DNA of 60,280 bases from Candidatus Omnitrophota bacterium (GTDB taxonomy: Bacteria; Omnitrophota; Gorgyraeia; Zapsychrales; Zapsychraceae), in contig JANQMA010000023.1 of the NCBI GenBank assembly GCA_028280285.1, positions 1-60,280 on the forward strand. The letters run 5' to 3'. Under the pieces are notes generated by a model, which was given only the letters and a program-made list of their open reading frames with translations, made no database searches and was not told the origin of the DNA. Positions 7,626-59,968 of the stretch are shown here, one piece after another. A program made the translations under genes and the position numbers. Position 1 is the first letter of the stretch; the number at the start of each line of letters is the position of its first letter.

Positions 7626-8027
7626 CTACTGACATACCTTCAAGGAAGACATAGCCTTTTTGATGCCATCAAAGTCTTTGTCATTATGAAGCAACTGCAA
7701 ATCATGTTCAATAGCCACTTGAGCGATAAGACAATCAACGGAATTGCGAATTGTAATACCTTTTTTACGGCATTGAATATAAATCTTAGCAGCTTGAGCA
7801 TAAGAATCTTTCTGATCCAAAGGAACAAAAAAGATCAGTGTATCGAGATACTTCTTTAAAAGGTTATAATCTTTAGGATTTGCCGCTCCCTGCAACAACT
7901 CCTGATAGATATGGCTTGTAATACCAAAGGGTATTTTCGATGCAATGATGTCATTTAATTGATCGGTTGCTGCATTATCAGCGCCTTTAAAAAAGTCAAT
8001 TAAAACAGATGTATCTACCAAAATCAT
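7626..8027 (-). CDS. vapC: PIN-domain toxin VapC
   Basis: 133 aa. Starts MILVDTSVLIDFF, with the conserved N-terminal Asp. Lies 3 nt downstream of the small antitoxin gene. Confidence 0.8.
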   Translation of the reverse strand: MILVDTSVLIDFFKGADNAATDQLNDIIASKIPFGITSHIYQELLQGAANPKDYNLLKKYLDTLIFFVPLDQKDSYAQAAKIYIQCRKKGITIRNSVDCLIAQVAIEHDLQLLHNDKDFDGIKKAMSSLKVCQ

Positions 8028-8030
8028 ATA

Positions 8031-8228
8031 CTATCCTTTTCTTAGAGCTTTATAATTGTAGTCTTTACGAAAAGTGATTTTCCCTTTTAGTTCGCGCAGA
8101 TCCAACCGACTATGGTTTTGAACATACTCTTTTAATGCAGTTGTGATTAAATCTTTTTTAGTCCGCAACTTGGATAATTTCAGAGCCTTCTTAACCAAGG
8201 CTTCATCTAAAACAATATTTGTGCGCAT
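8031..8228 (-). CDS. vapB: VapB-family antitoxin
   Basis: MRTNIVLDEALVKKALKLSKLRTKKDLITTALKEY... AGGAGG lies 9 nt upstream of ATG 8228. The ORF track's longer start at 8252 has no RBS. Confidence 0.7.
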   Translation of the reverse strand: MRTNIVLDEALVKKALKLSKLRTKKDLITTALKEYVQNHSRLDLRELKGKITFRKDYNYKALRKG

Positions 8229-8300
8229 AGAAATACACCTCCTTATACACATAGAATAGCATATATATTAAATATAGCAAACCAATAAAAAATTTTTGTA

Positions 8301-8459
8301 TTATTCAGGCTCGCGAGCGAAGGACAAATCGCCAATTGCGGCCTTGGCGGCCTCATACGGCTCGGGATCATCCGGCAGATCATCGGCCAGACCGAGAAAT
8401 AATGGAAGGTTGGTCATTGGTTGGACATTGATGATCACCGGCACAAACCCATGCTCCAT
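8301..8459 (-). pseudogene. Orphan copy of the giant-ORF C-terminal tail (52 codons, below the ORF-track cutoff)
   Basis: My translation: MEHGFVPVIINVQPMTNLPLFLGLADDLPDDPEPYEAAKAAIGDLSFAREPE*. It aligns to the 3' end of the 2,089-aa gene (nt ~9292-9430; GLVPVIINVQPMTNLPLFLGLADELPDDPEPYEAAKAEIGDLS) at roughly 85% nucleotide identity by eye. It has no upstream body. Confidence 0.75.
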
Positions 8460-8484
8460 AATTATTTGATTCAATCGTCTGAAG

Positions 8485-8745
8485 CTAACGATAAATAAGG
8501 GAATATTTCTCTAAGTTATTTAGAGAATCAAGATCCAAATCTATATCTAAATCCGGCCAGAAAAGATGAAAGCCATGATGAAGTTCGACATCCTGAATTT
8601 GAGCAAGTGTGGCATCTTTAAACCACGGAAAGTCTTTATCAGGTAAAAAATACTCCTTGGCCTTAACCATAACCCAAATCCCAAATGAGGAAATGTTTAA
8701 AACATCAACTTTGGAAATGTTTTTTCCACGATTTTTTGGCTTCAT
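8485..8745 (-). CDS. DUF2442-family small protein
   Basis: 86 aa. Pattern ...FPWFKDATLAQIQDVELHHGFHLFWPDLDIDLDLD... matches DUF2442 as I remember it. TAATG overlap with hicA. Confidence 0.6.
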   Translation of the reverse strand: MKPKNRGKNISKVDVLNISSFGIWVMVKAKEYFLPDKDFPWFKDATLAQIQDVELHHGFHLFWPDLDIDLDLDSLNNLEKYSLIYR

Positions 8746-8972
8746 TACAATAAACCTTTAAAGTCTTCAACCGAAATTTGTGCTTGTTTGAGTATATGCG
8801 AAAGGGTTGAACGTTTGATAGGACGATGCGCAGGCACTGTCAGTTTAAGCTTTTTTGACGGTGTTTCTTTCTGAAGACGAATGTGGCTGCCTTTTTGACG
8901 GACAACAACCCAACCATTGCGGCGCAAAGCTTTAATGACTTGTTCATAATTGGCGCTAGGAACCTTTGTCAT
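8745..8972 (-). CDS. hicA: HicA-family mRNA interferase toxin
   Basis: 75 aa. VIKALRRNGWVVVRQKGSHIRLQK...TVPAHRPIKRSTLSHILKQA. Confidence 0.8.
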   Translation of the reverse strand: MTKVPSANYEQVIKALRRNGWVVVRQKGSHIRLQKETPSKKLKLTVPAHRPIKRSTLSHILKQAQISVEDFKGLL

Positions 8973-9172
8973 ATTGACAACTCTACAGATTCCGCATTAG
9001 GAGTAAAACTGTTATCGTCCTCAACCGGCTCTAAATAAAGTTCAATCGCCTCTTTGATATTAGCTATCGCTTCATCCTTACTATTTCCTTCACTAAGACA
9101 ACCAGGAAGGGCCGGAACGATTGCCGTAAATCCACCTTCTTCACTTGGTTCTAAAATAATTTGTAATGTCAT
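8969..9172 (-). CDS. hicB: HicB-family antitoxin
   Basis: 67 aa. EEGGFTAIVPALPGCLSEGNSKDEAIANIKEAIELYLE. GGAGG 8 nt upstream. 4-nt overlap with hicA. Confidence 0.8.
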   Translation of the reverse strand: MTLQIILEPSEEGGFTAIVPALPGCLSEGNSKDEAIANIKEAIELYLEPVEDDNSFTPNAESVELSI

Positions 9173-9250: not shown

Positions 9251-12200
9251 CTAACACCTTCCCCCTAAAACCTTTAACATTTCTTGCCGCAGGTGGGACA
9301 AATCGCCAATCTCTGCTTTGGCCGCCTCATATGGCTCGGGATCATCCGGCAGTTCATCAGCAAGACCTAAAAATAGTGGAAGATTGGTCATCGGCTGGAC
9401 ATTAATGATCACCGGCACAAGCCCGTCAATGCTTAAGCGCAGCTGCTCAATCTGTTCTTGCGGAATATCAAACTTAAGGCAATCATCGAACGCGTCTTCC
9501 GAACAATCCGAGCCCTGCATGCCTTTGGTCTTCAACTCCCAGTTGGCGGGGTTAAGATCAATCCCACCTTTCTTAGCGTCTAGCGTAGAGCGGTTAGCGT
9601 TTAGATCACTATTCGCTATACGCTGTACGCTGCCTTCCGCCATCGCCGCCGGGTCGGGTTTAGCTTCGCTATCAAGGGCTGCAAAATCATCTTCTAAATC
9701 TGTCTTTATTTTTTGTAGATGATAAATCAATACATCCACAAAAATATTCCCTACCTTTTCTCGACTAATAACTTCCGATAATCTTCCTTTCACCGTATTC
9801 AAATATACATCAATCTCTTCTGCCTGATTGTACGTTGGGATATTTTGTTGTATCTCATATTTACTAAATGACAAAACATCCCTCACCACTTCAACATATG
9901 TATCACTTATATCTTCATGCTGTGCTATAAGCTCAGCCATACGTTCTGTTTGTTTTTGAGAAGTTAATACGAATAGATCGCTCATTAATTTTCCACGAAC
10001 AGACAGCCCCTTTTCAGTATTACTCCAAATTTCTTTAACCAAATCAAGGGTTTGAGACTTTAAATCAATAATATATAAATTAAGCGCCATCTGAGCTGTT
10101 TCTTTATCATAAAGCAATTCATCAGGATCTTCGAAATTATTAAACGCAGTTTCTTTACGAATAAAAAATTCAAAATTCATTGTATCTGTAAATTTCATTG
10201 TAATACCAAAAATCGTAAAAAGCGCATCAACATCAGGGTTATCCAAAAGATAATCAAGGATAATAGGATATAAAAATTCCAATTGATCAACCCCATTGGA
10301 ATCCTCCGTTAAATGATCACTCACAATACTCTCAATATCAGAAAGGACCTGTATTAAAAACCCCTTCATTGTAGATTTACTATATGCCTTGCTTAGTTGA
10401 TCATAGCTTGCAACTTTTTCTTCATATAACTTGCGTAAACCTTGGTGCAATCCTTTGATTGTCTTACCTGTCTTATATTTATATTCTGTGTGACTAAATG
10501 ATGCCGCATCGCCCTTGCCTCCCATCGCCGCCGGGTCGGTTGGTTCTTGATTGAGAGCAGCCGTATCGCTATCAGTGTCCTCAAACGCATCTCCCATTTC
10601 CTGCACTTCATCAATCAACCTACGGGTATCCTTTTCATACTTTTGCTGGCGTTTAATTCCTTCTATTTTTCCCTGATCAAATGGTTTTCGCACCTCATCT
10701 CTTATATCCTCAGGCAGCGCAACTAAAATATGTGCACCCACAGTTGCAAGCGCTGACAATAGTTCATCTTGTTTTTTCACACCGGGCTGGTTCACTTGCT
10801 CCTTGATTCCTTCTATTATCTGACTCAGCAACAATGGAGTATCCTCCAACCGCTGAAGAGCCGACGTCACAATAGCTCTTTGCCTTCCTTCTGAGCCTCT
10901 ATTTTTAAAAATGGAAGTAAAAAGCTCAAATGATTCTTGTTGGTCAACAACCTCATCGCCATGCACAATACTATCCAAAATACGTGTAAGAATCACAAGC
11001 TCTAGATATTTTTTATTTTTCTCAGTATCAGCATAGAGCATTTGAAGATTATCCGAAAACTCAACCACATCATATTCACTCATCGCCGCGGCATCAGCCT
11101 TATCGCCAAGCGTTTCAGCATCCGAATCATTCGACGGGTCTAAAACAGGCGTATCTGTCATTTTATGAAACGGTTTATGGACACGTAACATAAATTTTCT
11201 AAACAAATCAGATAAGGATTTCTCTAAGTCATATAACTCACTCTCATTGGCTGGTGATGCCACCATGCCCATTTCGACCAAACCCGTTATAACCTCGTCT
11301 AGAACTTTATCCGGTAATTGTGTTTCAAGGAATACACCAAGAAACTGTGCTCCTAAATCATTCTTTCCATAACCAGCATCAAGTTGCTCAGCAATGCCCT
11401 TAATGCCTTTAATCATCTTAATACCCCTAGCGTCCTTAATATCCCCAAAATAATCTCTATTAATAATATTACGTTTAAGAAATTGAGGAGAATAATCAGA
11501 GATATTAACATATCTTACTCCCTTGGATGCGTGTACAGTATCATACGGCATATGATACAACACACTTAACTTCCACATTTCTATCAAGTAGTCTCCCAAA
11601 ACATCAAATTTTTCTTTCATAATTTGTTTCAAGTAGTCTCCTAAAACCTTAAAATCTTCTTCTGTAGGAAGTTGCATTAGCTCTAACATTTTAGTAATGT
11701 TCTCTGAAGGAATCATGTGACCATTTGCCCCTCTTACAAATTCATATTTTTTTTTCTCATTCCATGGGTGTCCTGGAAATTCGCCCTTGAGCAATTTTTT
11801 CTTTTTCGCCTGAGCATCCACACCCAAAGCCAAAGCTCCTGCTGCCGATACGGCCGTTTTCACAAACTTCCTGCGATTCATCGCCGCCGGGTCGGTTGGT
11901 TCTTGCAGCGCTGCTGGTTCAGAAACGGCAGCATTTTCTCCATCAGCATAATTAGTTTGCCAATACTGCATAACCGTCTCAATGAACGGCATTAATCGTG
12001 GCTTAACGTTTTCAAATTTTGGCACATCCCCAAACAACTCGATTAATAAATCATTTGCCTCTTGCCTTATATCGTTATCATCCAAAGATTCAATAAAATC
12101 CATACGATGTTTATAGGCTGCAGGTGATGAAATAAACATCAATTTTTTCTCTTCGGGTGACAAATTTTTAATACGCCTATTAGCCGCCTCAGACCCTATT

Positions 12201-15200
12201 CGATTGCTCAACCATGCTCTTACAGCCTCCCGCGCCCCTTCCATGCTATAGCCCAAACGGCGGATCAAAAGTTCTTCCCGAATAATCCGCGCCGCTATGA
12301 CATACTCTGGCGGCCATTGAAAATCGACCAACTTTTCGGCTAACATTACTTCCGGAAAAGCACGATTAACGGCAATCTCGTGAATTAATGATTTAGGGTA
12401 TTGTGAAGCAGCAATTTCTCCTAAAGCGCCTGCCAGTTCCGCATGAGCTGTGAATCTAAACTCAGGGGCCTCTATATCAGTTGTCGCATTATATTGCTTA
12501 ATTAACCTTTCGACCGATCGTTTATAGTCGCCTCGTCGAATACGCTCTGTTGTATAAACATGTGTAGTTTCATGATAAGCTATCTCCAGTAAATAATTTT
12601 TAATAATTCGCTTATCAGAAATATTTTTAAAATCATTTTCAAATACCCGGTATACATGTTGTGCTATTTCTGCACCGATAGGATCTTTTTTAAGATCAGA
12701 TACAACAGGAGAATTATTTAATTTTCGTTTAAGATTTTCCAGTTTTTTACGAAGATAATAAAAATTAACAAACACATTGTGTCCAACCTGTCTACCTATG
12801 CCGGTAAAAATAGGATTAGGTGTATCCACCATATGAAATAGTGTCGGTTTATCCAACATAATTTCTTGTTTCACTTTGCTCTGTATATTATTTTCATAAT
12901 AGAGAGCAAGAAGATCAACGTAAACGCCATTCAAATCAAGCTTGGCTTTACGTACGAATTTTCCATCCCGACCAATGAGTGCCTGATTGTCATCCAAAAG
13001 TTTTTGTTCTAATTGTCCGATCTGATCTGGTGTTAATCCTTTGGTGATCGGTAATGCGGCCTGTGCATTCATTTTTTCTAAAAATTCATGAATAATGCTT
13101 TGTGCGGTATCCCCAGGCTGAACGATAACATGATAATAAAAACTCCATTGATCACGCACAAACCGAAATTTTGCCCCCTGCAGAAATGGAGAAACTGGCC
13201 CCAACACCATAAGCGCCCCAACTGTCCTGATAAACCTTCGTCTATTCATATCCATCGCCGCCGGGTCGGTTGGGGCGTCTTGTAGCGCTCCATCATCTTC
13301 ATTTAATACATTCGCCGTATCAGCTTTAGATAAACTTGCAAACTCAACATTGTCATAGTTCAGTTTGTTGTATATCAAATCGAAATTCACCTCACCACCC
13401 CTTATGGCACGTCGCAACAAAGATAAACTACCATCTTCTCTGGACACTTTCATAGATGCAACAGAAATTATATTCGTTAAATGCACAAGATCTTTATCAT
13501 TTGTGATTATAAATTGCGAAGAAACATCAACCATCCTTTCAACAAGTAATCGATTTCCAATAATCTTCTCTGCGTCTTTTTCTGTCGACCATTGCGATAC
13601 TGCTGAGAAAAACCTTCCCAATTCATATGGTTCTTGTTTTGACATAGCAATGTAACTACGCAAACCATGATAAAAAGACTCGTAGTCAGAAGAGATAGCC
13701 AATGAAAGATCCTCTTCAGGAAGAAGGGCATATAGACCATAAATGTCCTCATTAAAATATTGTAGTTTTTCTTCAGGCATTCCATCTCGATTGGAAGAGT
13801 TTTCAATCGAACTGATAAGTGAAAAATATCCTTTATTATGATTTACAACAGCTCTTCTTTCTTTATCACTTCCATCATGCAATCGATGAAAGTCAGATAT
13901 ATATCCAAATTGCTCCTGTATGGCCTGCGCATAACGATTAAAGCGCTCTACATCTCCATTTAGCTCACGCATTGTGTCAAGAAGATCACTAAATTGATTA
14001 GAAATCATATTCTCATCAAAAATTATACTTTCCGTATAAGGATCCCACTGATCGAATCCTGCTCGCCGATACTCTTCCTTTAACATTTCTGTAAATATTT
14101 TATTAGAATTTTGCATTGACCAATGACTTGGTAAACCATTTTCTATAATTGAAGTAATAATATTTGACTTGAGATCAAGCATAGCGCTCATCATAGGTTT
14201 AACTTCTGTTTCATCTAAAAACAGATTGTCTTCAAAAGGTTCTTTTTCGTTTGGATCACTATCATCTCCTTGTTCTTCTTCAGATATTTCTTTTTCAATA
14301 ATTGTTCGTATTTGATCGCTCTCGACCTCATCAGATGACTTGAATAAAATGACAGACATAACAAAAGCTGCTCCTGCGGCTGCAAATAGACCTATGTTTT
14401 TGAGCGTTGATAATGACGCATTATCTTTGTTTTCTGTGCGTAGTGCATTATCCATCACCGCTTGATCAAAACCAAATCCCCCAGAAAAATACTTGCGTGG
14501 GATGATTTGTTGCGCAACCGGATCGTATTCTTCTTTGATGTAGTCATAGACCCCGACTTTGAATGATTCGACATATTGATCGTAGATTTTTTGTGCCGCG
14601 CCTTCTTCACCGTGCGTGACGCCTTTGGTCTTGTTCTGATCCACGTACACTTGTGTAAGAACAGAGTTCTTGAGCTTACGTTTGTACCAGCTGGCAAGGA
14701 TGAGCGAGTTGTAGATCTGACGCAGCGGAGCAAAATGAGTTCCTTGATTCACCTCTTCTTCAAGCACCGGGAGGATAATGTCACGGATAATCTCAGCGTT
14801 TGGCGTATAGCGTTTAGCGTTTAGGGAGTTATCAGCTGATGGCTGAGAACTACTATCCGCTATCCGCTGTTCGCTACTCGCTAGAGCCAGGTAATCTTCT
14901 TCCAGCATAACTTTCAATCTACTCTCCACCACATACGCCACGCCATCACCTTCATAGACAGTCGCCTCTTCCGGGACGATCCACACCTTATTGAAAGTGT
15001 TGACCGGTATATTATCCAAGCCCGATTTTTGCTTAATCCGCTCCCAAAATTTTTGTCCCACACCTCCATCTTCCGGATACATCAGTGATGAGGTGAGCTG
15101 CTTGAGTAAATAGTCCTGGGCCAGCAATTCACGGCCCATCTCCGTCATCCCAAATTGCTCCGGAATAATTCGGTCCTCTTCATACGGGGATAAGTTCACC

Positions 15201-15520
15201 CATAGATCAGATTCGGGGACAGTCAGTGAGGCAAGGAAGTATTTGATCAGCTTGGTAGACTCTTCCTGAAGGACCTCACCTTCCATCCCCGAATCTCCGG
15301 GATCTATAATAAAATCGAATTGAAAGGGGTTTTCCGGGTTTATCTTTAAACCCTTAACTGTCACTGGGGCATAGGGTTGTGTCAAATTAAGCATATTGCC
15401 GATCGGGAGCAACACTATCGGCTGGGCAAAAGCAGAAACGGGCATCTGGATAGATGTCCATAGAAAGGCCACTATAGTAAAAATAGATATAGTTTTATTA
15501 AAAGGGGTATTTCGTCTCAT
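9251..15520 (-). CDS. Giant modular envelope protein (2,089 aa), paralog of the 3,539-aa ORF; function unknown
   Basis: Uninterrupted 6.3-kb ORF in AT-rich DNA. Sec-type signal MRRNTPFNKTISIFTIVAFLWTSIQMPVSAFA. N-terminal domain (aa ~40-355) is shared with the other giant ORF (NPFQFDFIID, DLWVNLSPYE.DRIIP, FAPLRQIY.SLILA.WYK, IIPRKYFSGGF). Six D-x-A-[AV]-M junctions end at M356, M756, M1214, M1480, M1666 and M1960. Two internal Tat-like signals. HETTH at aa 983-987. C-terminal GGIDLN...GLVPVIINVQPMTNLPLFLGLA tail. Confidence 0.9.
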   Translation of the reverse strand: MRRNTPFNKTISIFTIVAFLWTSIQMPVSAFAQPIVLLPIGNMLNLTQPYAPVTVKGLKINPENPFQFDFIIDPGDSGMEGEVLQEESTKLIKYFLASLTVPESDLWVNLSPYEEDRIIPEQFGMTEMGRELLAQDYLLKQLTSSLMYPEDGGVGQKFWERIKQKSGLDNIPVNTFNKVWIVPEEATVYEGDGVAYVVESRLKVMLEEDYLALASSEQRIADSSSQPSADNSLNAKRYTPNAEIIRDIILPVLEEEVNQGTHFAPLRQIYNSLILASWYKRKLKNSVLTQVYVDQNKTKGVTHGEEGAAQKIYDQYVESFKVGVYDYIKEEYDPVAQQIIPRKYFSGGFGFDQAVMDNALRTENKDNASLSTLKNIGLFAAAGAAFVMSVILFKSSDEVESDQIRTIIEKEISEEEQGDDSDPNEKEPFEDNLFLDETEVKPMMSAMLDLKSNIITSIIENGLPSHWSMQNSNKIFTEMLKEEYRRAGFDQWDPYTESIIFDENMISNQFSDLLDTMRELNGDVERFNRYAQAIQEQFGYISDFHRLHDGSDKERRAVVNHNKGYFSLISSIENSSNRDGMPEEKLQYFNEDIYGLYALLPEEDLSLAISSDYESFYHGLRSYIAMSKQEPYELGRFFSAVSQWSTEKDAEKIIGNRLLVERMVDVSSQFIITNDKDLVHLTNIISVASMKVSREDGSLSLLRRAIRGGEVNFDLIYNKLNYDNVEFASLSKADTANVLNEDDGALQDAPTDPAAMDMNRRRFIRTVGALMVLGPVSPFLQGAKFRFVRDQWSFYYHVIVQPGDTAQSIIHEFLEKMNAQAALPITKGLTPDQIGQLEQKLLDDNQALIGRDGKFVRKAKLDLNGVYVDLLALYYENNIQSKVKQEIMLDKPTLFHMVDTPNPIFTGIGRQVGHNVFVNFYYLRKKLENLKRKLNNSPVVSDLKKDPIGAEIAQHVYRVFENDFKNISDKRIIKNYLLEIAYHETTHVYTTERIRRGDYKRSVERLIKQYNATTDIEAPEFRFTAHAELAGALGEIAASQYPKSLIHEIAVNRAFPEVMLAEKLVDFQWPPEYVIAARIIREELLIRRLGYSMEGAREAVRAWLSNRIGSEAANRRIKNLSPEEKKLMFISSPAAYKHRMDFIESLDDNDIRQEANDLLIELFGDVPKFENVKPRLMPFIETVMQYWQTNYADGENAAVSEPAALQEPTDPAAMNRRKFVKTAVSAAGALALGVDAQAKKKKLLKGEFPGHPWNEKKKYEFVRGANGHMIPSENITKMLELMQLPTEEDFKVLGDYLKQIMKEKFDVLGDYLIEMWKLSVLYHMPYDTVHASKGVRYVNISDYSPQFLKRNIINRDYFGDIKDARGIKMIKGIKGIAEQLDAGYGKNDLGAQFLGVFLETQLPDKVLDEVITGLVEMGMVASPANESELYDLEKSLSDLFRKFMLRVHKPFHKMTDTPVLDPSNDSDAETLGDKADAAAMSEYDVVEFSDNLQMLYADTEKNKKYLELVILTRILDSIVHGDEVVDQQESFELFTSIFKNRGSEGRQRAIVTSALQRLEDTPLLLSQIIEGIKEQVNQPGVKKQDELLSALATVGAHILVALPEDIRDEVRKPFDQGKIEGIKRQQKYEKDTRRLIDEVQEMGDAFEDTDSDTAALNQEPTDPAAMGGKGDAASFSHTEYKYKTGKTIKGLHQGLRKLYEEKVASYDQLSKAYSKSTMKGFLIQVLSDIESIVSDHLTEDSNGVDQLEFLYPIILDYLLDNPDVDALFTIFGITMKFTDTMNFEFFIRKETAFNNFEDPDELLYDKETAQMALNLYIIDLKSQTLDLVKEIWSNTEKGLSVRGKLMSDLFVLTSQKQTERMAELIAQHEDISDTYVEVVRDVLSFSKYEIQQNIPTYNQAEEIDVYLNTVKGRLSEVISREKVGNIFVDVLIYHLQKIKTDLEDDFAALDSEAKPDPAAMAEGSVQRIANSDLNANRSTLDAKKGGIDLNPANWELKTKGMQGSDCSEDAFDDCLKFDIPQEQIEQLRLSIDGLVPVIINVQPMTNLPLFLGLADELPDDPEPYEAAKAEIGDLSHLRQEMLKVLGGRC
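9576..9630. repeat. In-frame palindromic heptamer element, (GCGNNTA)x4 ... (TNNNCGC)x3
   Basis: gcgtcta gcgtaga gcggtta gcgttta g atcac tattcgc tatacgc tgtacgc. Encodes ~SVQRIANSDLNANRSTLDA, a segment missing from the equivalent place in the other giant ORF. Confidence 0.7.
9641..9660. repeat. GC-rich junction repeat, degenerate copy
   Basis: catcgccgccgggtcgggtt (KPDPAAM, M1960). A further variant, catcgccgcggcatcagcc, lies at 11081-11099 (DAAAM, M1480). Confidence 0.8.
10523..10549. repeat. GC-rich junction repeat, same core
   Basis: catcgccgccgggtcggttggttcttg. Precedes MGGKGD (M1666). Confidence 0.9.
11879..11908. repeat. GC-rich junction repeat, same core
   Basis: catcgccgccgggtcggttggttcttgcag. 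The first 27 nt are identical to the copy at 10523. Precedes MNRRKF (M1214). Confidence 0.9.
13253..13285. repeat. GC-rich junction repeat, core CATCGCCGCCGGGTCGGTTGG (encodes PTDPAAM on the minus strand)
   Basis: catcgccgccgggtcggttggggcgtcttgtag. Precedes MDMNRRRF (M756). Confidence 0.9.
14803..14881. repeat. In-frame palindromic heptamer element, (GCGTWTA)x3 ... (TNNNCGC)x4
   Basis: gcgtata gcgttta gcgttta ... tcagctga ... tatccgc tatccgc tgttcgc tactcgc. Encodes SSEQRIADSSS...SLNAKR inside the shared N-terminal domain. Confidence 0.7.
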
Positions 15521-48768: not shown

Positions 48769-51700
48769 TTAAATCATAGCCGGCTCAATGGCGGATAATT
48801 CGTACTCCTCTTCTTCCTGGCGGGGTGCAAGGCCAAGGAGCGGAAGCACGCTTGGCAGAGGAACAAAATTAATAATGACAGGGGTAAAGCCGCGCACATT
48901 GCCGAAATCCTCAAGTGCCGCCGGGTCAAAGTCGATCGTCACACCAGAGCCCTGACGCTCTACCTCAATATCATTCATATCAATCCCACCAACATCCGTC
49001 ATCACAGCATCATCTTTACCATCTTTCTTAACTTTTATTTGATAATAGTCGGGCTGCGTGTCTCCGCCTTTATTATAAGGCCCATTAACAACTTCAACCC
49101 CTTCAGGATAATGATCTGACTCAATTTCTATAATTTCATATTCTTCATCATCCAAACTTGCCAAATCAATCCCAGCTAAGTCAACCATTGTCTCACCTGT
49201 ATCAACAGACGTATCCAACACCCCGGCGTCAAGCGAAGTACGATATTGATTTAAAAGAGCCCCTGCGTGAATCACTTCTTCCATATACACATTCGGAGTA
49301 TGAAAACTCGGATATTCATGCATTCTATATCCAAGAGAAAAACTCTCCCCGTTTCGTGCTAAAACAATCGCATATGGCAATAGAGAAAAAATATACTCTT
49401 CAATTTTTTCTTCATTTAACCTGTCGTAATCTTTTGTATTCAGACTAGCATTAATTTTTTCCAGTTTTTCTTTTAAAATATCATGCTGTTGCTTCGCCAA
49501 CCGCGCAAGAGCTTGATCTTCCTTTTCCGGTGATTTAGTTCTAATAACTTCTAAATAAGCTTCTTTTCTTTTTTGTTTCCACGTCGTAATTGCCAACCTA
49601 TCGCGTATCATCATTTTTTGCCAACTATTTTGAAACGAATCTTTACTATGTTTATTTCGATAATTTAAATAATCCTGTAATAAATAAACTCCAAAAGTCG
49701 ATACAAATAGAATCCCTACAAAAGTCGTCAGTAAAACTGTCTGAAACGTGTCATCCGACATACCCAACACCGCGGCATCGGTATTATTTAACACATAAAG
49801 TATTTCGCGCGCCTTTACACGAAGATCTAAATAATCAACAACAGTATCACTCGATCCTCTATCTTTAAAATTAACACGTCCTGCTGTAATATCGTCAACA
49901 GCTGAAATTTTTTCTAAAACAATATTTAATCTTCGTGCTTGATCGGCATCTAAGGCATAGCGATATTTATGAACAACCAAAAGTTCCTCTAAAAATCGAT
50001 CCCGCTCCTGAACTAATTGTTGTTTAGTTTCACCAAACATAGCATAAAACATATTGTCCCCAACATATTCTATTTGCTCTTGCGAAAAATACAGCGGTAA
50101 CACATCTAAATCTAAAAACTCCTCTACTGCCCGATCAATATCTTTTCTCGAAACATTTCGATTTTTTTCATTCCATTGCTCTTTCAAATTCAAAACATGA
50201 AGTCGAGCCGATAACTTTCTTGCAAATTTTCTTACCTCATCATATAAAATGATTTCTCGCTTATTGCCATCTTCTTTCCAAGCTTGAGAAGAAACTTCTT
50301 CAAAAATATCTTGAACAATATTAACCTCACTTAATTTTTCGATTAATCTTTCTCGCTGGTCATATCTAAATTCACCTAAATAGTCGTTTAACAATTTTAA
50401 CTTATCTAACACCTTTGCCTTTTCTTCCAATAATGATTTTTGCATATCCAAAACATAAATCTGCTCAGCTTCGCTTTCGGCATAAAATGCTTTGTATCTA
50501 TTTCTTTCTTGAAATAAATCACCTTTCACAAAACGATTAACAAAAGAAGATATTTCAGCCCTATTATCACCACGCCCGTCTTCCAATTGATAAAAATGAT
50601 CAAAATCCGGCATTTTTTCTAAAAAGCTATCTGTTGTTCTTTTGGTATCAGAAGTTGAGACACTCTGAGGCGTAAAAACAGTGTCGTAACGATCCATTGT
50701 TTCAAATGTGGCTAGCTCCAAATCACGTTGTAGATTAATATCAAACCCAATATTTAATCCATTCATGTGTTTATTAACAATACCCTTATAGGGCGCATAC
50801 TCTTGTTCAGTCATTGGGTTAGCAATATACGCAAATGTAATATGCCCGACAAATGGAAATTGTGCATGAATATCAGTCCTTTTAGATATCACTGTACGAA
50901 TAACATCAATACCTTTAACAGTTTCTCTATTTTGAGGCTCCACCAAGGCAAGCAATAAAAATGGCGCAAAAGAGCCTAATTCTGTTATTTGAAAATTAAG
51001 ATTGTCAAATGCCTTTGTATCATGTAATTGCTCAAAAGCCGTCTTTACCTTTTGGACAACAATCTTCTCAACATCCTGCTGCGGCTTTCCTTGATATTCA
51101 ATATTCCTTTCTTTAATACGCGCAAGATCATCTGGATTAACCAAATCCTTAAACGTCATATGAAAAGAATCTTCATCCACAAATGCAAGCTTATCCCTTA
51201 GTCCCGCCTCGTTAATATCTTGTTCAATAGCACGTTTGACATCAACAAGCTGACTTTGTGTCCTATCATCAAAGCGAACAATCACTGTATTTCCACGAAA
51301 TTCTTTAAACTCCAAGCTATCTGGATCAAGCTTCGCCCTTGCCGGAATCACATCCTGTTCAGTAAGCTCAATTCGTTCATTCCGTAAATTTGAAAATTCA
51401 TTAAATGCTGCTTTTCTACCGGCACCAATTAATACTTTAGCTGCCTGCTCTAAATCATTAGTGTCGCTTGCAAAAATACGTATGCGATAACCAAATGTAT
51501 TTCCAACCTGAGTAGGGTCTTCTTGTAATTCTATTCCTTTTGAGTCAAGTAATGCCACTACTTGATCTAACTTAATTTCAGGAATTGTCACTTCGATTTG
51601 AGTATTATTAATAATAGCGCTCTGTCCATAAATTCGTTGCACTTCCTCCCGCAATTCATCCAACACCGCCGCGTCGTCTGCGGGCCCCTTTGCAGCTTCC

Positions 51701-54700
51701 TTTAACACCGCATTATCACCATCATCTTTTTTTGTAAAATACCCTAATAATATACCAAAGCTTCCTACAACAACCATTGCTACACCTAATACAGTAAAAA
51801 AATCCGCAGACGACATTGTGGCAAAATCATCAACATCAGCTTTCTGTCCCAACACCGCTGAGTCAACTCTAAACACTCTATCAGTCACATCCTTATTATC
51901 TCCTTGTGTTCTTTTATCCACAATATCAATCGCTAACTTCACATAACCACTTCGTTCAGTAGTCTCATAAAGATTAGCTGATTCGCTTATAAGAGAACGT
52001 ATGTGCTTCAATTCAATATCTGCATTTTCGCCTAATTCCATATAGCGTTTGATTTGGTCTAATACCGGTGGGTGCACATATACTGAAACACCGCCTCTAT
52101 TCCACATTTCATCAACTATCTTTTCATCTGCTTTCTTAAGAATTTGTTTTTTATAAATCTCATATTGAACTGTTAAATTTAGATCTTTTAAAGGCTCATA
52201 AGTCCTTAAAAGATACCCTGCACGCGCCCATTCATCAATAGAAACATTTGGAGTATTAAAACCAGGGTAATCATACATTGTATATTTTAGAGAAAATTTT
52301 TCACTGTTTTGAGCCAACAAAATAGCACTAGGTAACAATGAAAAAATATTTTCTGTTATTTGTTCATCTGACATTTTGTCATAATAACGCGTATCTAATG
52401 TCTCATTTATTCTTTCTAATTCACCCTTTAAAAAGTCAAACTGCTCTTTAACAAGCTTGGCTTTAATCTGATGCCTTCTATCTTTTGATTTACTATTGAC
52501 TATATTGTAATAAGCATTTTCACGCTTCTCTTGCCAATCCAATATTCCAGTAGAATTAAATAGCGCCAACCAATCTTCTTCAAAACCTTTAATAACTTTA
52601 TTTTCACGAAACTTTAAATATCCCCCTAAAAGTGGCGCGCCTAAAGCAAGTCCAAGTGTAATCACTAGAAAGGCTACCGTCTTAATTGTCTCAGCTGTAT
52701 CAACAGACATACCCAACACTGCATCATCTTTTTTAATAACTTCAACTCTAACTGAAGTAGTAAAATCTTCTTTTTTAGGTTCTTCAGGAAGGCTAGCAGG
52801 GGGACCACTCGCATCTATCTCCCCTATTTCGTACCACGCCATCGCTTCTGCATACCCTGTCTCATCAAAAATAGCTTCATGATATATCACATCAAACTTT
52901 TCATGAGCACGGTAAATTTCGTCGCCAATAATATCTATTACTTTTTGAATATTATTATTAGTAACAGCATCATATGCGTGTGGCTTTAGTTTATCCTGGA
53001 TAGCTTGTCTTGCCTCTCTGGATGTTATACGATCCCATTTTAATAAATCACCTAACTCAAACTTCTTTATCGCCTCAGATAATAATTCATACTGCGGCGT
53101 CTGTTCCGCATACCATCCGTCAGGTCGCACGCCTCGTGTTCCCCCCATATTGGAACCGGTCATTGTAGAAGAGAAATATTCATACTCCTTCGCGACACGA
53201 TTCATAACAGTATTTTTCAAATACTCTAATCCACGATAATCCCCCGATAAATACATTTCTCCCACAAAATCAACCGCATCTTTAATTGCTGTATGAGGCA
53301 ATGAATCCTCATTATACCTTTCCATCTCACCGGTGAGCTCATCGGCGGTGAACATCTTGTCTTCAGCAGTTAACTCCTGTAGCTCATCCCACAAATCGTT
53401 TAAATACTGCTCATCGCCAGTTTTCTTAGCATTCATTGCCTTTTCTGTTAAAAAATCCGCTGCTTTTATTTCATCCTGCATAAATCCAAACTGCTCTAAC
53501 GCTCTCTTGGCTTCAGAAGAAACATACTTATCCGCATGGGCAAGATTATTTTTTAATGTTCTAACGGCGCGCCAATAGCCAAGCTCTCCTAATGTGCTCA
53601 TCGGCTGCCAAGGATAAGGATGGTGACCATTTTTTGCCGCAGCCATGTTGGCAATCACGAGATCTTCTGCAGTAAATTCCGAAGGATATGAAAGAAATAA
53701 TTTAGCGACCTGCTCATGAATCTTTTTGTTAGAATAACCGAGAAAAGGTAGTACATACTTATTATAACTCCCATCATAATCTTGACGTGCTATTTCCCAT
53801 CCTATTTTACGAATAGCATCTAATATTTCTTGTTCAGAATGTTCATTTGGATTTTCTAAAATTTTAATTGCTGTTTTCAAGAACACAACAATCGTCGCGG
53901 CATCAGTTTCTTGCAATGTCGCACGATCTTTTTTAAGAATGTATGGTTCATTATCTCCTGTTGGAACATTCTTAGACGGATCATTTAAACCGGAAAAAAT
54001 AATATAATAAGGTTCTTCGTCCCTGTCGTGAATATTTAACGGTCGCTTTTGTCTAATAGCCGACGTAGCATTGGCACTGCTGCGTTTTCTTTCGATTTTT
54101 AATGCTATTTGACTAGGTCTGTTAGCCAGGTTTTTTAACAATTCCGGCAGTTTTACAATAAGACCCTTTGTTTCACCGGAACGCAAAGTTGTTTTGGGTT
54201 TATTGGTATCTTTGCCTTCTTCTATAAAGCCAACCTCAGCTTTTAAGCCCACATCGGTATCATCCCATTGAAGATAGGCGTCAACATTTGTAATCGACAT
54301 TTTTTCCGTGCCATTATTTTCCAAAAAAACATATAAATTATTGTCATACCATTCAACCGAGGCGCCTGGAATAGAAGTACGTATGCCTAGAACGATAAAA
54401 TCGGCCGTGGTTTTAGTGACATTAACTTCTTTAACACCGTCCCACTGCGTTGGCATCTTAACTTTATCCGGAACAAAATTGCGAATAGAGTCGACGTTAA
54501 ACGATGTTTGTGCGCCTGCCGTACATACCCCGGCCAAACACACCGTCATCAAACTTACAGTAAGCATTGGCAATACCTTAGATTTAAACAGCATCGCCTT
54601 ATCACCTTCGATGACTTTTTTGACAAAGACTCCGATTAATGGGTTTTCTTGGCTTATACGGGAGAAAAGCTCCTTTTGTGTTAGTTTCACCGCATTAAGC

Positions 54701-57700
54701 AATCCGCCCATTTCTTCAGAAAGCTCATTCTTTTCATCAGACGTAAGTTCCTTATGAAGCGCGATCGCATCCTTCCAATTTTGTGCCGATAATATCTTAA
54801 GGTCACCTTCTACCGTCCAGTCTCCACTCGCATAGTTAGCTATCAGACGAAACGTTTCCCCCACAATGTCATAAAGCGTGGTTTCTTCTCTTTGGTAGTC
54901 AACCGTATAGCTGACAGGTTTGATTTGCCCTTCTTCAAGAAGGCCTTCACTTATATATTTTGCAATGACACTATTAAACTGACCCTTAGTTCTTAATTGC
55001 TGCAGTGGTGTGTGCATATATAAAATTGTCTGTTCTTGCCCATAAGTAAAAAGGCCTCCATCCTTCATCAAATCGATTGACTTGGTAAAATTTTGCACAG
55101 TATACAAAGCATCCGGTTCGATCAAAACAATGTCATCGTTTTTAAGATCTTTTGCAATATTCGCAAATTGTGAGCCTTCTTCCTCAGCCATTTTTATCAT
55201 AAGTATGCGTATTAAATCCGCTTCTGACACCGTCTCATCGGTTACTTCGGCCATTTTGCGTAAATCAGCCGTTGCTCTTCCTTTTTTACCGGAAATGAGA
55301 ATTTTGTTTCCAATTCCTTGTTGATAAAGATGCATAATTTTTGTTAGGGCGTTTATATCGCTGTTGCCCGGTATCATTAAAATGTCGACACCTGCAGTTG
55401 CCAGCTCTCGTTCGTTTACATCATTATGCACAAGCTTACGAATCAGAGAATCTTCCTTTGTGGCCACATCCAATACGTGGAGAATATGGTCGCCCTTCTG
55501 TTGACGGGAATCCCGACTCTCATCGTTGACCAAATCCGTATACAACGACTCAACCAAATCTGGATTTTTCATACTTCCCAAAACAATCTCCGCCATCGCT
55601 TTTCTGTTGTTTAAAGATTCATTATTAACTAGTGCCTTCATTTGAACTGTAGCCACTATATAATCTTTGCCTTTCCCAAGGGTGCCTTCATCCGTTTCTT
55701 GTGCCGCTTTATTAAGAGGTTTATCAGGATCGATCGTGGGCTCTACAATTTCCGGTGGGATATTAGTGAATAAAAATGTCCTTACTTCATTCGTTTTACG
55801 ATGTTTGTAAACGGCATAGAGCGGATCATCATTGGGTATTTTTTCCCAATTAAAAAACTGAAAAGCTTCTTCAATAAATGCCGCTTCCTGTTGCGCAAAA
55901 AAGTTGGCATATTCGGTATTAATTATATTTTCATATGCCTCTAATCGGTCCGCTAAAGAATTGTCAGCTTGTGCCAAAATATTACGATTGCGTTCAAACT
56001 GATGCAATTCTTCGACATCCATTGGTTTTTCACGAACCACACCAATATGAAAATAATTTCGAATTTTTTTTCTTTCAGGACGAGGCAATTGCCGCACCTG
56101 CTCATAACGCTCCTCAATCGATTGACCGGTAATTCTCTGTTCCGCCAGATCAAGTAACGCGACACTACTGTACTCATCATAAGCCTGCTTTAACTCCCCC
56201 CTTGCAATAAATCTACTCACAATTATTTTCGGACGTGAAACACTAACAAAATCTACCAGCTCGGGTTCACTAAGCATCTCTTCTTTAACACTCTTTATAT
56301 TCCAGTGTACATAAGGATCTGCTGCGGACGCATATTCAACAATTTCAGTAAGCAAAACCCCCTGAAGGACCAATCTTACTTTTTCATCATACACACGCTC
56401 GTTTAAAATATTCTCTGGAACCTGATTTTTATTATAGGAGACAACTTCCGATGTTAACCTGTTTTTATACGTTATAACATTCTTATCTTGAGAAATCTTT
56501 TTCCATAATTCTTGTAAGTTGGAACGATCATAAAAATACGCAAACCTTTTAATCATTGTTTGCAAGCGCTCTGCTACGATCCAATTTTCTTCACCTCTAC
56601 CACCTTTTTTAAAATAGTCATATACATACTTCACCTTGGCATAAAACTCGGGATCACGTTTTGCTAAATTCCGCTCCAAATATTTGAAAAGAAACCCGGG
56701 CACTTGATGTCCGCCTAAAATGTCAGGGTCTCCATATTTATACAATTCTTGAAATATTTTTGTATCGATTTTCTTTTTATCAACATTCTTATCGATCATT
56801 TTTGTGATCGTCTCTTCTTCCAATACAAAAATAGCATTATGGTTTAAGAAAGCCTTGCCGCCATACCAGAATAAGATGAGTCCTTCTGGTATAAGCAAAA
56901 TAGGTGCATAAAAAATGGAGGCGACTACGGCTGCCACGGCCCCCACACCTATTAGAGCTTTGGTGACCCATGACAATTTCTTAGGAAAAAATATTTGATC
57001 CATCTCAGCGGATACTTCTTGAATAGAGTATTTATGCGCATTTTTTATACTCCTTTCCGCCTCTATCAACGTCATCGCCGCGTCGTCTTTACCGTTTTCC
57101 TCATTTCCTTTCGACGACACATTGCCATAATATTTCTCCTCCAAAAGATTAACTTCATCTAGAGTAGCTGGTTTTTTTAATTTATCAGGATAAATCAAAT
57201 AATCATATAGTTTGCCTAAGTCAGAATTGACCTCTTGTGTTAATTCATATAATGCATTGCTATATTCTATATTCCCTTTTTTAAATCCTTCTTGGAACTC
57301 ACGCTTAAGTCTCATTTCTTCCTGTCCAACAAAAGTAATTAGCTCATTTATGCGTGAACGCGTACTCTCATAGCGCAAAGAATTAATGACACTCTCAATA
57401 AATATTAAAAAGATGTTTATCAAAAAGGCTGAATCGGCATCAACATCTTCCGCCATCGCCGCGGCGTCTGTATTCTGTGAACCACCTTCCTTAAGAACAG
57501 CATCATCTTTATTATCTTTCTTAACTTTTATTTGATAATAGTCGGGCTGCATGTCTCCGCCTTTATTATAAGGACCATTAACAACATCAGCCCATTCAGG
57601 ATAATGATCTGACTCAATTTCCATAATTTCATATTCTTCATCATCCAAGTTTGCCAAATCAATCCCGGATAAGCCAACAATTGTCTCACCTGTATCAACA

Positions 57701-59439: not shown

Positions 59440-59955
59440 TTATTCCCATATGGGATTTGTTCGAATATACCATCGAACATATTGTAATTCCTGTTTATTT
59501 CTAATAACACGATCATGATAGGAACGTTGCCATAATTTAAAATTTGATTCATCATATTTACCCGTAGGGGCCGACCAACGCGTCGGCCCTAAATTCATCG
59601 GACGATTCGCCTTAATAAATTCATTGGTGGTCATGGTTTTAAACCATTGAATTATTTTTGGTATTGATATTTTCGGGCGGACACATTGGTCCGCCCCTAC
59701 ATTATATTTTATTTTAATAATTCCATGTAAATGATCCGGCATAATTATATATTCATCCAATTCACACAATGAAAATTTACAGGATAATGACCGCCACCAA
59801 AAATCGACCATTTGACCACATAAATCAAGACACATCGTTTCTTCACAAATATCACCAAATAATTTCTGCCTTTTAAACGAACATATTGTCACAAAATAAT
59901 ACCCTGTATTCGTATAATCAAATTCTTTCCATCGTAATTTTTTCCTAACAAACAT
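59440..59955 (-). CDS. IS200/RAYT-like Y1 (HUH) transposase
   Basis: YYFVTICSFKRQKLFG, HUH motif MPDHLHGIIKI, catalytic Tyr region LWQRSYHDRVIRNKQEL. AGGGGA RBS before ATG 59955. The track's longer N-terminus (MRLTVSMHVTVSM) is a translated tandem repeat. Confidence 0.8.
   Translation of the reverse strand: MFVRKKLRWKEFDYTNTGYYFVTICSFKRQKLFGDICEETMCLDLCGQMVDFWWRSLSCKFSLCELDEYIIMPDHLHGIIKIKYNVGADQCVRPKISIPKIIQWFKTMTTNEFIKANRPMNLGPTRWSAPTGKYDESNFKLWQRSYHDRVIRNKQELQYVRWYIRTNPIWE
59564..59592. repeat. GTAG-type REP embedded in frame in the RAYT CDS
   Basis: GTAGGGGCCGACcaacgcGTCGGCCCTAA. Encodes ...LGPTRWSAPT... Confidence 0.7.
59673..59700. repeat. GTAG-type REP, inverted copy, embedded in frame in the RAYT CDS
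   Basis: ttcGGGCGGACacattgGTCCGCCCCTAC, whose reverse complement is GTAGGGGCGGAC...GTCCGCCC. Encodes ...VGADQCVRP... Confidence 0.7.
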
Positions 59956-59968
59956 ATGTTCCCCTAAC

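Follow-up and report, generated by a model that had tools for sequence, protein, structure and literature searches.

The GC-rich blocks repeated within W1, a gene encoding 2,089 aa on the reverse strand of the 60,280-nucleotide Omnitrophota stretch analysed here (hereafter the window), encode a module-junction peptide of a framework-plus-cargo protein. The peptide is likely read by a protease, and the DNA identity of the blocks is regarded as a local by-product. We assign this reading a probability of approximately 0.5.

Repeated blocks and module organization of W1

W1 (9251..15520, − strand) comprises an N-domain, five unrelated cargo modules (aa 357-755, 756-1213, 1214-1479, 1480-1665, and 1666-1959), and a C-domain. 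The preliminary description reported an exactly repeated 21-mer, and our search located CATCGCCGCCGGGTCGGTTGG at 10523-10543, 11879-11899, and 13253-13273, where shuffled sequences led us to expect 0.00 occurrences. The 27 identical nucleotides attributed to the copies at 10523 and 11879 were verified, as were the two degenerate copies; that at 9641-9661 has three mismatches, and that at 11081 shares only GCCGCGGCGATG. The codons of the block, taken from the coding (−) strand, are CCA ACC GAC CCG GCG GCG ATG (PTDPAAM), in frame in the open reading frame 9251-15520. All five copies are direct repeats, in frame, and encode (P)(T)D-P/A-A-A-M. The blocks are indeed GC-rich islands, being the GC-richest 21-mers of a gene with a GC content of 0.40 and a GC3 of 0.36. 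The modules that they flank are as dissimilar as had been claimed, with BLASTP finding no mutual similarity except in the final ~15-25 residues, and the cargo part of W1 contains no exact repeats of ≥14 nt other than the blocks.

All features of the gene lie on the − strand. A signal-peptide-like segment at the N-terminus (15425-15520) precedes the family N-domain (aa 58-348; 14477..15349), which was delimited by homology (alignment A1) and ends with PRKYFSGG. Immediately after this domain lies the first junction-type site, DQAVM (14453..14467), which had been overlooked in the preliminary description and is followed downstream by a hydrophobic helix at 14342-14395. Junction A, with the tail GALQDAPTDPAAM (13253..13291), contains the exact 21-nt block (13253-13273) and leads into module m2 (11882..13255), which opens with MDMNRRRFIRTVGALMVLGPV (13172-13249) and carries the motif HETTH at 12560-12574. 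Junction B, with the tail AALQEPTDPAAM (11879..11914), contains the exact 27-nt block at 11879-11905, and its Met opens a twin-arginine-signal-like stretch, MNRRKFVKTAVSAAGALALGVDAQA (11807-11881); the twin-arginine profile TIGR01409 matched W1 weakly (13.2 bits versus a cut-off of 16.7). The degenerate junction E, with the tail ETLGDKADAAAM (11081..11116), has only GCC GCG GCG ATG in common with the other copies. Junction C, with the tail AALNQEPTDPAAM (10523..10561), contains the other exact 27-nt block (10523-10549). Junction D, with the tail AALDSEAKPDPAAM (9641..9682), is the final junction before the C-domain and matches the other copies exactly over 17-18 nt (CCGACCCGGCGGCGATG[G]). The family C-domain, GGIDLNP...DGLVPVIINVQPMTNLPLFLGL (9362..9568), was identified by homology to sampled family members.

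The identity of the blocks exceeds what the peptide requires, as the preliminary description had argued. Given the codon usage of the gene, the probability that three copies are identical at all six degenerate codons is about 1.6e-6, and that four copies are identical at DPAA is about 3.8e-6, both of the order of 1e-6. Synonymous identity this far above chance requires a nucleotide-level cause. The identity ends abruptly on both sides; the upstream A-A-L is conserved, with codons differing from copy to copy. None of the inverted-repeat pairs lies wholly inside a block; only one of them, I19, touches a block, and it pairs that block with a flank 36 nt away.

Downstream of W1, HicAB- and VapBC-like pairs were observed together with an orphan C-domain fragment (8322..8450, − strand; 87% nucleotide identity to 9296-9424) that lacks a junction block. 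The HicAB-like genes sit between this fragment and W1.

W1 as a member of a large Omnitrophota family

W1 is one of a very large set of related and previously undescribed Omnitrophota proteins, a family with a conserved N-domain, variable cargo, and a conserved C-domain. A search with W1 returned more than 3,193 N-domain homologues, aligned over only ~17% of the query, and the matches listed (more than 100) had 46-63% identity over the first ~17% of W1. The N-domain alignment (A1) contains many invariant columns. The GTDB genomes yielded 578 family loci, mostly labelled Omnitrophota, several of which extend past 3,700 aa. The best related loci were mostly from MAGs with that label, and, as the window has no rRNA marker, its placement in Omnitrophota by this analysis follows from sequence similarity. 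BLASTP with the C-domain (W1 aa 1963-2089) matched the C-termini of 152 of the approximately 196 sampled members, and the signature of this domain, GGI(D/N)(L/M)N...PVIIN...LP..LG, is present in W1. Within the window, a 3,539-aa paralogue, W2 (48769..59388, − strand), has N- and C-domains as in W1 and 13 junction-type sites of the form D-x-A-[AV]-[ML], for example DAAAM at 57454-57468, DDAAM at 57073-57087, and DDAVM at 49000-49014, the last adjoining the C-domain.

The N-domain has no Pfam or NCBIfam match, and its AlphaFold model was poor, with no fold match. Over its 2,089 aa, W1 gave 0 Pfam domains (E≤0.1) and 0 NCBIfam matches, and its cargo had 0 homologues at E≤1e-3 among 5.8 billion proteins. 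Neither a protease nor a recombinase recurs among the conserved neighbor genes of the family.

Module m2 is of a type that recurs between junctions in the family members P0025 and P0040. In the alignment of these modules (A2), H228, E229, H232, T235, and E273 are invariant, and HExxH is enriched 8.9-fold in the family. The invariant H, E, and H together with the downstream E would make the HExxH module at most a candidate for a cognate protease encoded in cis. The module, modelled by AlphaFold at pLDDT 73.6, had no match to the PDB, Pfam, or known folds; the last 20 residues, which form the junction tail, scored below 50 and are modelled as disordered. In homologous modules, a lysine-rich anchor helix stands opposite the 'Tat-like' start of m2 in the alignment, so this start may anchor the chain internally in the membrane instead of acting as a signal at a free N-terminus.

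Cargo exchange and nucleotide identity at junctions

Cargo is unrelated between relatives that have 72-86% identity in their N-domains and C-domains, and 566 of the 579 pairs with N-domains ≥72% identical have nothing in common between the N- and C-domains. The close pair L073/P0054 has four homology breakpoints, each of them ≤11 residues from a junction. These data indicate that module exchange at junctions is real: in the relatives, cargo modules have been acquired, dropped, or substituted, and the breakpoints coincide with junctions. The part of the preliminary description that treated the blocks as module junctions at which cargo is swapped thus held at the level of the family, and the part that tied the swapping to the DNA identity was not supported, exact identity of junction DNA not being a family property. 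Its analogy to the VENN/PT-type junctions of toxins was not borne out, as no VENN or PT domain, toxin, immunity gene, or recombinase was found.

These observations bear on whether the nucleotide block itself is selected as a short homology serving as a recombination substrate for in-frame swapping or deletion of cassettes. The synonymous identity within W1 and its sharp edges, the direct and in-frame arrangement of the copies, the swapping of cargo at junctions in the family, and the orphan C-domain fragment downstream of W1 would all fit such a role, and the raised GC3 of the motif could stem from biased gene conversion at a hotspot. However, L073 and P0054 differ in their modules at junctions lacking nucleotide identity, where serine is written with both TCN and AGY codons. 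Codon concordance between junctions is strong in P0025 (86 versus 49.7 expected) and in L058 but absent in L059. The junctions of W1 and W2 have no significant DNA in common, the best match being a 16-mer that was reached by 6 of 30 shuffles, and the 21-mer is absent from the related sequences in the metagenome collection searched. Moreover, a recombinase, a toxin, an immunity gene, and an orphan cassette bearing the block are all absent, and a length of 21-27 nt does not exceed the minimum that RecA-dependent exchange usually needs. Selection of the block as a recombination substrate is therefore unlikely.

Selection at the codon level alone, in which G/C-ending codons would be required for accuracy or for a pause at domain boundaries, was weighed against the same sequences. 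GC3 is elevated at precisely the five motif codons over 64 independent sites (z up to 3.7), a position-specific excess seen in independent lineages; GCG ATG CTG recurs in distant genes; and the housekeeping genes of the window use GCG and CCG most for Ala and Pro. A bias toward G/C-ending codons in the motif across such distant lineages could reflect a nucleotide- or codon-level role. Nevertheless, codon selection leaves the threefold-identical upstream CCA ACC unexplained, the family being unbiased there (P about 0.006, calculated by hand), and it does not account for GAC, since the housekeeping genes favor GAT (75%). GC3 is also elevated in the N- and C-domains, suggesting that the cause of the motif bias may be regional, and the variable columns of the N-domain show nearly the same excess as the conserved ones, which likewise points to a regional effect. 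In the orthologues L023 and L027, the junction codons diverge synonymously like the rest and are not clearly better conserved (85% versus 79%, n=39). We regard codon selection alone as improbable.

The junction motif as a peptide signal

The junction peptide is family-wide, with the core D-x-A-M, of which P-T-D-P-A-A-M is the W1 version. D.AM occurs 450 times in the family versus 33 expected (13.6-fold), at a median spacing of 254 aa. The pattern GAYNNNGCNATG was found 159 times in frame 0 versus 12.5 expected, compared with 3 times in the other frames and 9 times on the antisense strand; this enrichment in frame 0 only indicates that the junction is primarily a peptide signal. Junctions separate Pfam enzyme domains, such as UGPase from PGM in P0026, and one stands ahead of GAPDH in P0116. 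The motif coincides exactly with module borders, and it is also found immediately after the N-domain and immediately before the C-domain.

Within a genome, dispersed paralogues all have one flavor of junction, and the flavor changes from genome to genome, other genomes using SSP[VLI] or ASSA[IV]. Such uniformity among the dispersed paralogues of one genome argues for a factor that reads the junctions in trans, a protease being the most plausible one. D.AM was absent from 69 of 193 sampled proteins, which suggests that these use other flavors or none. Behind 11.9% of junctions there is a hydrophobic helix resembling a signal or an anchor; the figure is 0.7% upstream of junctions and 2.4% at random positions.

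A passive flexible linker that has no reader and owes its likeness to common descent and drift would agree with the predicted disorder of the tail and with the poor conservation of the residues flanking the core. It is difficult to reconcile with the near invariance of D, A, and M, the strong enrichment of a three-residue core, the single flavor per genome, and the strict polarity of the downstream hydrophobic helices, and we give it little credence. Internal translation starts, by which the junction ATG would allow modules to be made separately as well from one mRNA, would explain why Met is almost invariant in the main flavor and why signal-like sequence follows it in W1, W2, and P0117; the GC-rich context preceding the junction ATG contains no Shine-Dalgarno-like sequence, and the flavors SSP[VLI] and ASSA[IV] of other genomes have no start codon, making this explanation quite improbable. 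An RNA-level element in the mRNA (a structure or a binding site for an sRNA or protein), which the preliminary description had offered as an alternative and which the nucleotide identity of the block would suit, is highly improbable, because mRNA folds differ between copies (z-scores −0.9, −1.2, +1.9, +1.7, and +0.3), the window holds 0 antisense copies of the block, the pattern is frame-locked and not conserved as DNA in relatives, and the Rfam 15 covariance-model search at the gathering score gave 0 matches in the whole window, rRNA included.

Proposed processing of framework-plus-cargo proteins

According to the protease-read junction reading, the framework would consist of a signal peptide and the conserved N-domain at the front and the conserved C-domain at the end, with unrelated cargo between them. 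Every module would close with a disordered tail finishing in the short motif. A trans-acting factor would read this motif; it is most likely a protease that splits the chain into modules, so that the product would be a bacterial polyprotein and a Met or hydrophobic residue would head each following module. The identity of 21-27 nt in W1 would not be functional in itself. It may derive partly from a family-wide liking for codons ending in G or C at the five positions of the motif and partly from homogenization from copy to copy within W1, by short-tract gene conversion or by recombination from junction to junction as modules were joined. Gene conversion in W1 is inferred from the pattern of identity. 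More tentatively, Omnitrophota may possess dozens of polyproteins per genome, each built from an N-domain directed to the membrane or to export, a string of cargo enzymes, and a C-domain. Each genome would have its own protease that co-evolves with the motif and cuts D-x-A-M between Ala and Met, at joints that would also serve for shuffling cargo between paralogues.

Relationship to known systems

MARTX toxins combine a conserved N- and C-terminal framework with recombining, unrelated central modules and short inter-module processing sites. The family described here resembles them in its constant ends, a middle that varies from relative to relative, and a short inter-module motif. In contrast to MARTX toxins, it lacks both RTX repeats and a cysteine protease domain (Pfam), its cargo consists of housekeeping-type enzymes or orphan sequence, many copies occur per genome, and processing is putative. 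Viral polyproteins carry protease-specific cleavage motifs, such as the picornavirus 3C sites cleaved between Q and G. Modules arranged as beads on a string and a very short, lineage-variable motif of genome-uniform flavor are common to both, whereas the genes studied here are chromosomal bacterial genes with dozens of copies, whose cleavage is inferred.

In polymorphic toxins (VENN in CdiA, PT/Rhs), a short peptide borders the recombining variable part (Zhang et al., 2012; PMC3482391). The framework family differs in having several junctions per protein and a conserved rather than variable C-terminus, in having neither a toxin/immunity pair nor an orphan cassette array, and in exchange that occurs without conserved junction DNA in relatives. 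W1 was rejected as a polymorphic toxin (CDI/Rhs/Maf), since its C-terminus is a conserved family domain and it has no VENN, PT, or Rhs core, and as an integron attC- or shufflon-type cassette, since there is no nearby recombinase and no inverted-repeat core in the site.

Very long multi-enzyme and Archaeovorin-type proteins have been described in Omnitrophota, where they pose an acknowledged puzzle; the latter exceed 30 kaa and contain glycosyl transferase, methyltransferase, glycosyl hydrolase, peptidase, and NUDIX domains. According to West-Roberts et al. (2023; bioRxiv 10.1101/2023.11.21.568195), it is not known where such proteins are cut, and this stands in the way of predicting their structures and parsing their functions. 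These giants resemble the framework family in phylum, in chains of mixed enzyme domains (PGM, methyltransferase, HATPase, and GNAT, among others), in their signal peptides or membrane helices, and in suspected cleavage after translation, whereas W1 differs from the Archaeovorin type in its length of 2,089 aa and its lack of a Pfam domain. The text of Nielsen and Lui (2026; bioRxiv 10.64898/2026.06.07.730766) does not mention cleavage, a motif, a linker, or a junction. Both the N-/C-domain framework and the junction or cleavage motif are absent from these two studies.

The five-codon motif displays a position-specific synonymous bias that so far has no explanation, and the family offers a clean natural system for the shuffling of cargo domains on a conserved framework. 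The junction motif supplies a concrete, testable rule for segmenting the long multi-enzyme proteins of Omnitrophota and predicts that proteomic data will contain peptide termini between the Ala and Met of D-x-A-M. If the polyprotein reading is correct, the motif would be the missing 'cleavage grammar' of the giant proteins of Omnitrophota, and processing of this kind would represent a widespread bacterial polyprotein strategy.

A repeated block within W1

The 21-mer CATCGCCGCCGGGTCGGTTGG was found in exact copies at 10523, 11879, and 13253 and with three mismatches at 9641, whereas dinucleotide-preserving shuffles gave an expectation of 0.00 21-mer matches. The copies at 10523 and 11879 have 27 nt in common, and the copy at 11081 retains GCCGCGGCGATG alone. 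Every copy lies within a single minus-strand ORF of 2,089 aa (9251-15520; W1), in which a conserved N-domain and C-domain enclose five cargo modules. In coding orientation, the block is CCA ACC GAC CCG GCG GCG ATG (P-T-D-P-A-A-M), the W1 form of a short peptide motif at module borders, termed the junction. The blocks were the GC-richest 21-mers in the cargo part of W1 (GC of W1, 0.40; GC at third codon positions [GC3], 0.36), which contained no other exact repeats of at least 14 nt. Nucleotide identity dropped sharply at either block edge, and the upstream A-A-L was kept as a peptide with codons differing from copy to copy. BLASTP similarity among the modules between blocks was confined to their last 15-25 residues. 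Identity of three copies at six degenerate codons had a probability of about 1.6e-6 under the codon usage of W1 itself and, by hand calculation, about 5e-6 under that of the housekeeping genes of the window. The 21-mer scan, shuffles, and BLASTP comparison bore out the preliminary description, which had reported the exact copies with their 27-nt pair, the two degenerate copies, their richness in GC, and flanking modules without mutual similarity; the synonymous identity it had pointed out was likewise upheld by the codon-usage calculation. An assembly chimera at the repeats was disfavored by their length of only 21-27 nt, by the frame kept through all junctions, and by the same architecture in hundreds of independent assemblies.

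The third module of W1 (m3) contains a 40-nt tandem pair (11577-11616 and 11622-11661; 83% identity) encoding a duplicated (D/E)FKVLGDYL. Downstream of W1, a minus-strand ORF (8301-8474) carries an orphan C-domain fragment (…GFVPVIINVQPMTNLPLFLGLADDLPDDPEPYEAAKAAIGDLS; 8322-8450), which is 87% identical at the nucleotide level to the 3' end of W1 (9296-9424) and is the trace of an old rearrangement or a lost paralogue. Toxin-antitoxin pairs directly downstream of W1 comprise a PIN/VapBC-like pair (7626-8252) and a HicA/HicB-like pair (8745-9172), the latter lying with an 86-aa ORF between the orphan fragment and the W1 stop codon.

A family with a conserved framework

The window is part of a bacterial chromosome; its genes include rodA, a PBP2-type gene, mreC, mreB, aroA, an rluD-type pseudouridine synthase, lspA, a class I aminoacyl-tRNA synthetase that is probably ileS, genes for type IV pili, and a helicase-nuclease pair. 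A search with the whole W1 protein returned >3,193 homologues, each covering 15-22% of the query at 41-63% identity and matching the N-terminal ~350 residues only; for the W1 cargo (aa 359-1962), no database homologue was found at E<=1e-3. Behind their N-domain, the homologues carried Pfam domains of phosphoglucomutase (PGM), UDP-glucose pyrophosphorylase (UGPase), PGI, PGK, and GAPDH, in addition to methyltransferases, HATPase, PP2C, M48 peptidase, and others. The C-terminal ~100 residues (GGIDLNP...PVIIN...LP.FLGL) were conserved too, in 152 of the roughly 196 members sampled. Because both ends are conserved and the Pfam content between them is diverse, the family is, on this evidence, a conserved framework with variable cargo. 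Neither the N- nor the C-domain matched Pfam or NCBIfam, and Foldseek found no fold relative of the N-domain AlphaFold model (pLDDT 57).

Scanning one genome per GTDB species confirmed 578 family loci, several per genome, labeled mostly as Omnitrophota MAGs and in some cases as Planctomycetales or plain 'bacterium'. The 3,539-aa W2 (48769-59388, minus strand) is a further member within the window; the ORF just upstream of it (59440-60006, minus strand) showed a weak IS200-like Y1 transposase match (E 1.2e-4, below the Pfam cut-off). Comparison within W2 (aa ~549-632 versus ~3393-3463; aa 2221 versus 3204) showed internally duplicated modules with their junctions (KKDDAVLGMSVDTGETIVGLSGIDLA…YYQIKVKKD.KDDAV[LM]), as well as the pair of paralogous modules described below. 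Across 77 loci, no conserved neighboring protease or recombinase was found, the only recurrent neighbors being a second family gene, within 5 kb at 11/77 loci, and a response-regulator gene, which recurred beside 8 family loci. The family overlaps the Omnitrophota 'multi-enzyme' long proteins (West-Roberts et al. 2023; Nielsen & Lui 2026). In the searchable literature on these long proteins, we found no description of the framework or of the junction motif.

Module exchange at junctions

Among 579 ordered pairs with N-domains at least 72% identical, 566 shared nothing more until the C-domain. The end of the N-terminal homology lay at a median distance of 11 residues from a junction, compared with 62 for random placement; this association is partly due to architecture, since most members have their first junction behind the N-domain. 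An earlier breakpoint test using a crude motif and merged HSPs gave 0.16 versus 0.13 for random positions upstream and 0.48 versus 0.16 downstream, and specific pairs were used in its place. The members L073 and P0054 are 86% identical in their N-domains, 83.5% in one common module, and 73% in their C-domains; P0054 has an extra 358-aa module and, downstream, modules that are wholly different. The homology between the two breaks at four points, each no more than 11 residues from an ASS[AG][IV] junction at both the protein and DNA levels. These alignments show that family members do exchange modules at junctions. The proposal that the blocks serve as sites of recombination thus stood with respect to the position of module breakpoints in relatives, but not in its reliance on nucleotide identity, which this pair lacks at its junctions, where serine is encoded by both TCN and AGY codons.

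The closest functional analogues are MARTX toxins and viral polyproteins, which also combine a conserved framework with heterogeneous modules and short sites between them, and the polymorphic-toxin junction is the closest analogue for the exchange aspect; W1 belongs to none of these groups.

Selection on the junction peptide

In 193 non-redundant family proteins, D.AM was the most enriched three-residue pattern in all sequence after the N-domain, that is, the cargo and C-terminal part (450 observed versus 33 expected, 13.6-fold). It recurred at a median spacing of 254 aa; the next residue was usually L/V/T/A/I and the one after that small, and the flanks were barely conserved. The junctions of W1 and W2 take the forms D-P-A-A-M and D-x-A-[AV]-[ML], respectively. 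The motif occurred directly behind the N-domain and directly ahead of the C-domain, and also bordered recognizable enzyme domains: in P0026, ahead of UGPase, between it and PGM, and behind PGM; on both sides of UGPase in P0060; and 12 residues ahead of the GAPDH N-terminal domain in P0116. The corresponding DNA pattern GAYNNNGCNATG occurred 159 times in the reading frame versus 12.5 expected, with 3 occurrences in other frames and 9 antisense. Because this enrichment is restricted to the reading frame, selection at the junction acts on the peptide.

Nucleotide identity of the junctions

Junction codons were strongly concordant within P0025 (86 versus 49.7 expected) and L058 (54 versus 35.6), weakly in P0040 (54 versus 42.8), and not in L059 (22 versus 27.4). 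In the collinear orthologues L023 and L027 (87% aa identity), conserved residues had identical codons at 85% of junction positions versus 79% elsewhere (n=39), so that these junctions appear to be under no clear extra synonymous constraint. The mixed codons of L073 and P0054, the gene-to-gene variation in concordance, and the lack of constraint in L023/L027 argue against a requirement for a particular nucleotide sequence. The W1 21-mer was absent from related sequences in the metagenome collection searched; an exact scan of metagenome contigs gave 9 matches, all unrelated and mostly in high-GC sequences. DNA homology between W1 and W2 junctions was rejected, the best exact word common to the two cargo regions being a 16-mer at a junction, a length that 6/30 codon shuffles reached.

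In 64 junction sites taken from independent GTDB loci, precisely the five motif codons, and not the flanks, had elevated GC3 (z 1.7, 3.5, 3.7, 0.8, and 3.0). W1 and W2 showed the same pattern (e.g., 9641-9655 and 57454-57468), and GCG ATG CTG recurred among distant genes. Selection for accuracy or pausing, or biased gene conversion, are possible causes of this excess of G/C-ending codons. GC3 was 0.48-0.55 in the N- and C-domains of W1 and W2 and 0.39-0.53 in housekeeping genes, compared with 0.31 in the cargo (W1, 9569-14452; W2, 48991-58350), and the framework-cargo contrast was likewise seen in 57 family genes; within the N-domain, variable columns were enriched almost like conserved columns. 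The 'GC island' is therefore partly Ala/Pro/Asp codon composition and partly GC3-rich framework against AT3-rich cargo. The cargo stands apart in composition and may be sequence that evolves fast or is of foreign origin. Codon bias alone cannot account for three identical CCA ACC copies, or for GAC, which is used in the block although housekeeping genes prefer GAT. We infer that homogenization among the W1 junctions, superimposed on the general codon bias, is the most economical account of their exact identity. It may have come about by short-tract gene conversion that did not extend beyond the ~40 nt of similarity, or by junction-to-junction recombination during module assembly.

Proposed processing or recognition at the junction

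A hydrophobic signal- or anchor-like helix followed 11.9% of junctions within 40 residues; the corresponding frequencies were 0.7% on the upstream side and 2.4% for random positions. In W1, a junction Met begins MNRRKFVKTAVSAAGALALGVDAQA, with a weak TAT_signal match below the cut-off; in W2, DKAML is followed by a signal-peptide-like stretch. Two paralogous modules of W2 have a membrane helix at their start, immediately behind DDAVL/DAAVL. Since the matching segment in modules homologous to the W1 module m2 (11882-13255) is a lysine-rich anchor helix, such stretches may be internal membrane anchors and not free N-terminal signals.

HExxH was enriched 8.9-fold in the family. The module m2, which contains HETTH, represents a recurrent ~400-aa type that is junction-bounded in P0025 and P0040 and has invariant H, E, and H and a downstream E, features that make it a candidate protease. 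No PDB sequence or profile match and no Pfam match was found, and in a Foldseek comparison of its AlphaFold model (pLDDT 73.6), no PDB entry scored below E=0.5. The last 20 residues of this model, the junction tail, had pLDDT values of 30-36, which suggests an exposed linker. In L090 (P0025) and L091 (P0040), two or three tandem copies of an m2-type HELxHSxTTP module were observed, each bounded by PDxAMLA junctions and starting with a basic-plus-hydrophobic helix.

Some genomes use other junction flavors, including SSP[VLI], [AS]SS[AGS][IVL], and D.AV[LM]. Flavor was uniform among the dispersed paralogues of one genome and differed between genomes. A passive linker joining modules is disfavored as an explanation, as it is not expected to give a uniform, genome-specific flavor. 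The alternatives headed ALTERNATIVES (an RNA element, internal initiation, site-specific recombination, and polymorphic-toxin membership) fared less well. Site-specific recombination was opposed by the lack of a nearby or recurrent recombinase and of an inverted repeat confined to the block. Internal initiation led by a Shine-Dalgarno (SD) sequence found no SD-like sequence 5' of the junction ATG and is also countered by junction flavors without start codons. The RNA-level function that had been offered as an alternative was abandoned: five local folds of the mRNA around the blocks shared no structure (z-scores -1.2 to +1.9, not significant), and Rfam gave no match. Polymorphic-toxin membership failed on each defining feature tested.

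The cleavage points of Omnitrophota long proteins have been stated to be unknown (West-Roberts et al. 2023, bioRxiv 10.1101/2023.11.21.568195). We read the junction as a processing or recognition site; cleavage would be the likeliest action there, and to cleavage by itself we assign a probability of roughly 0.4. The distribution of flavors is what one would expect if a single trans-acting factor in each genome recognized the site.
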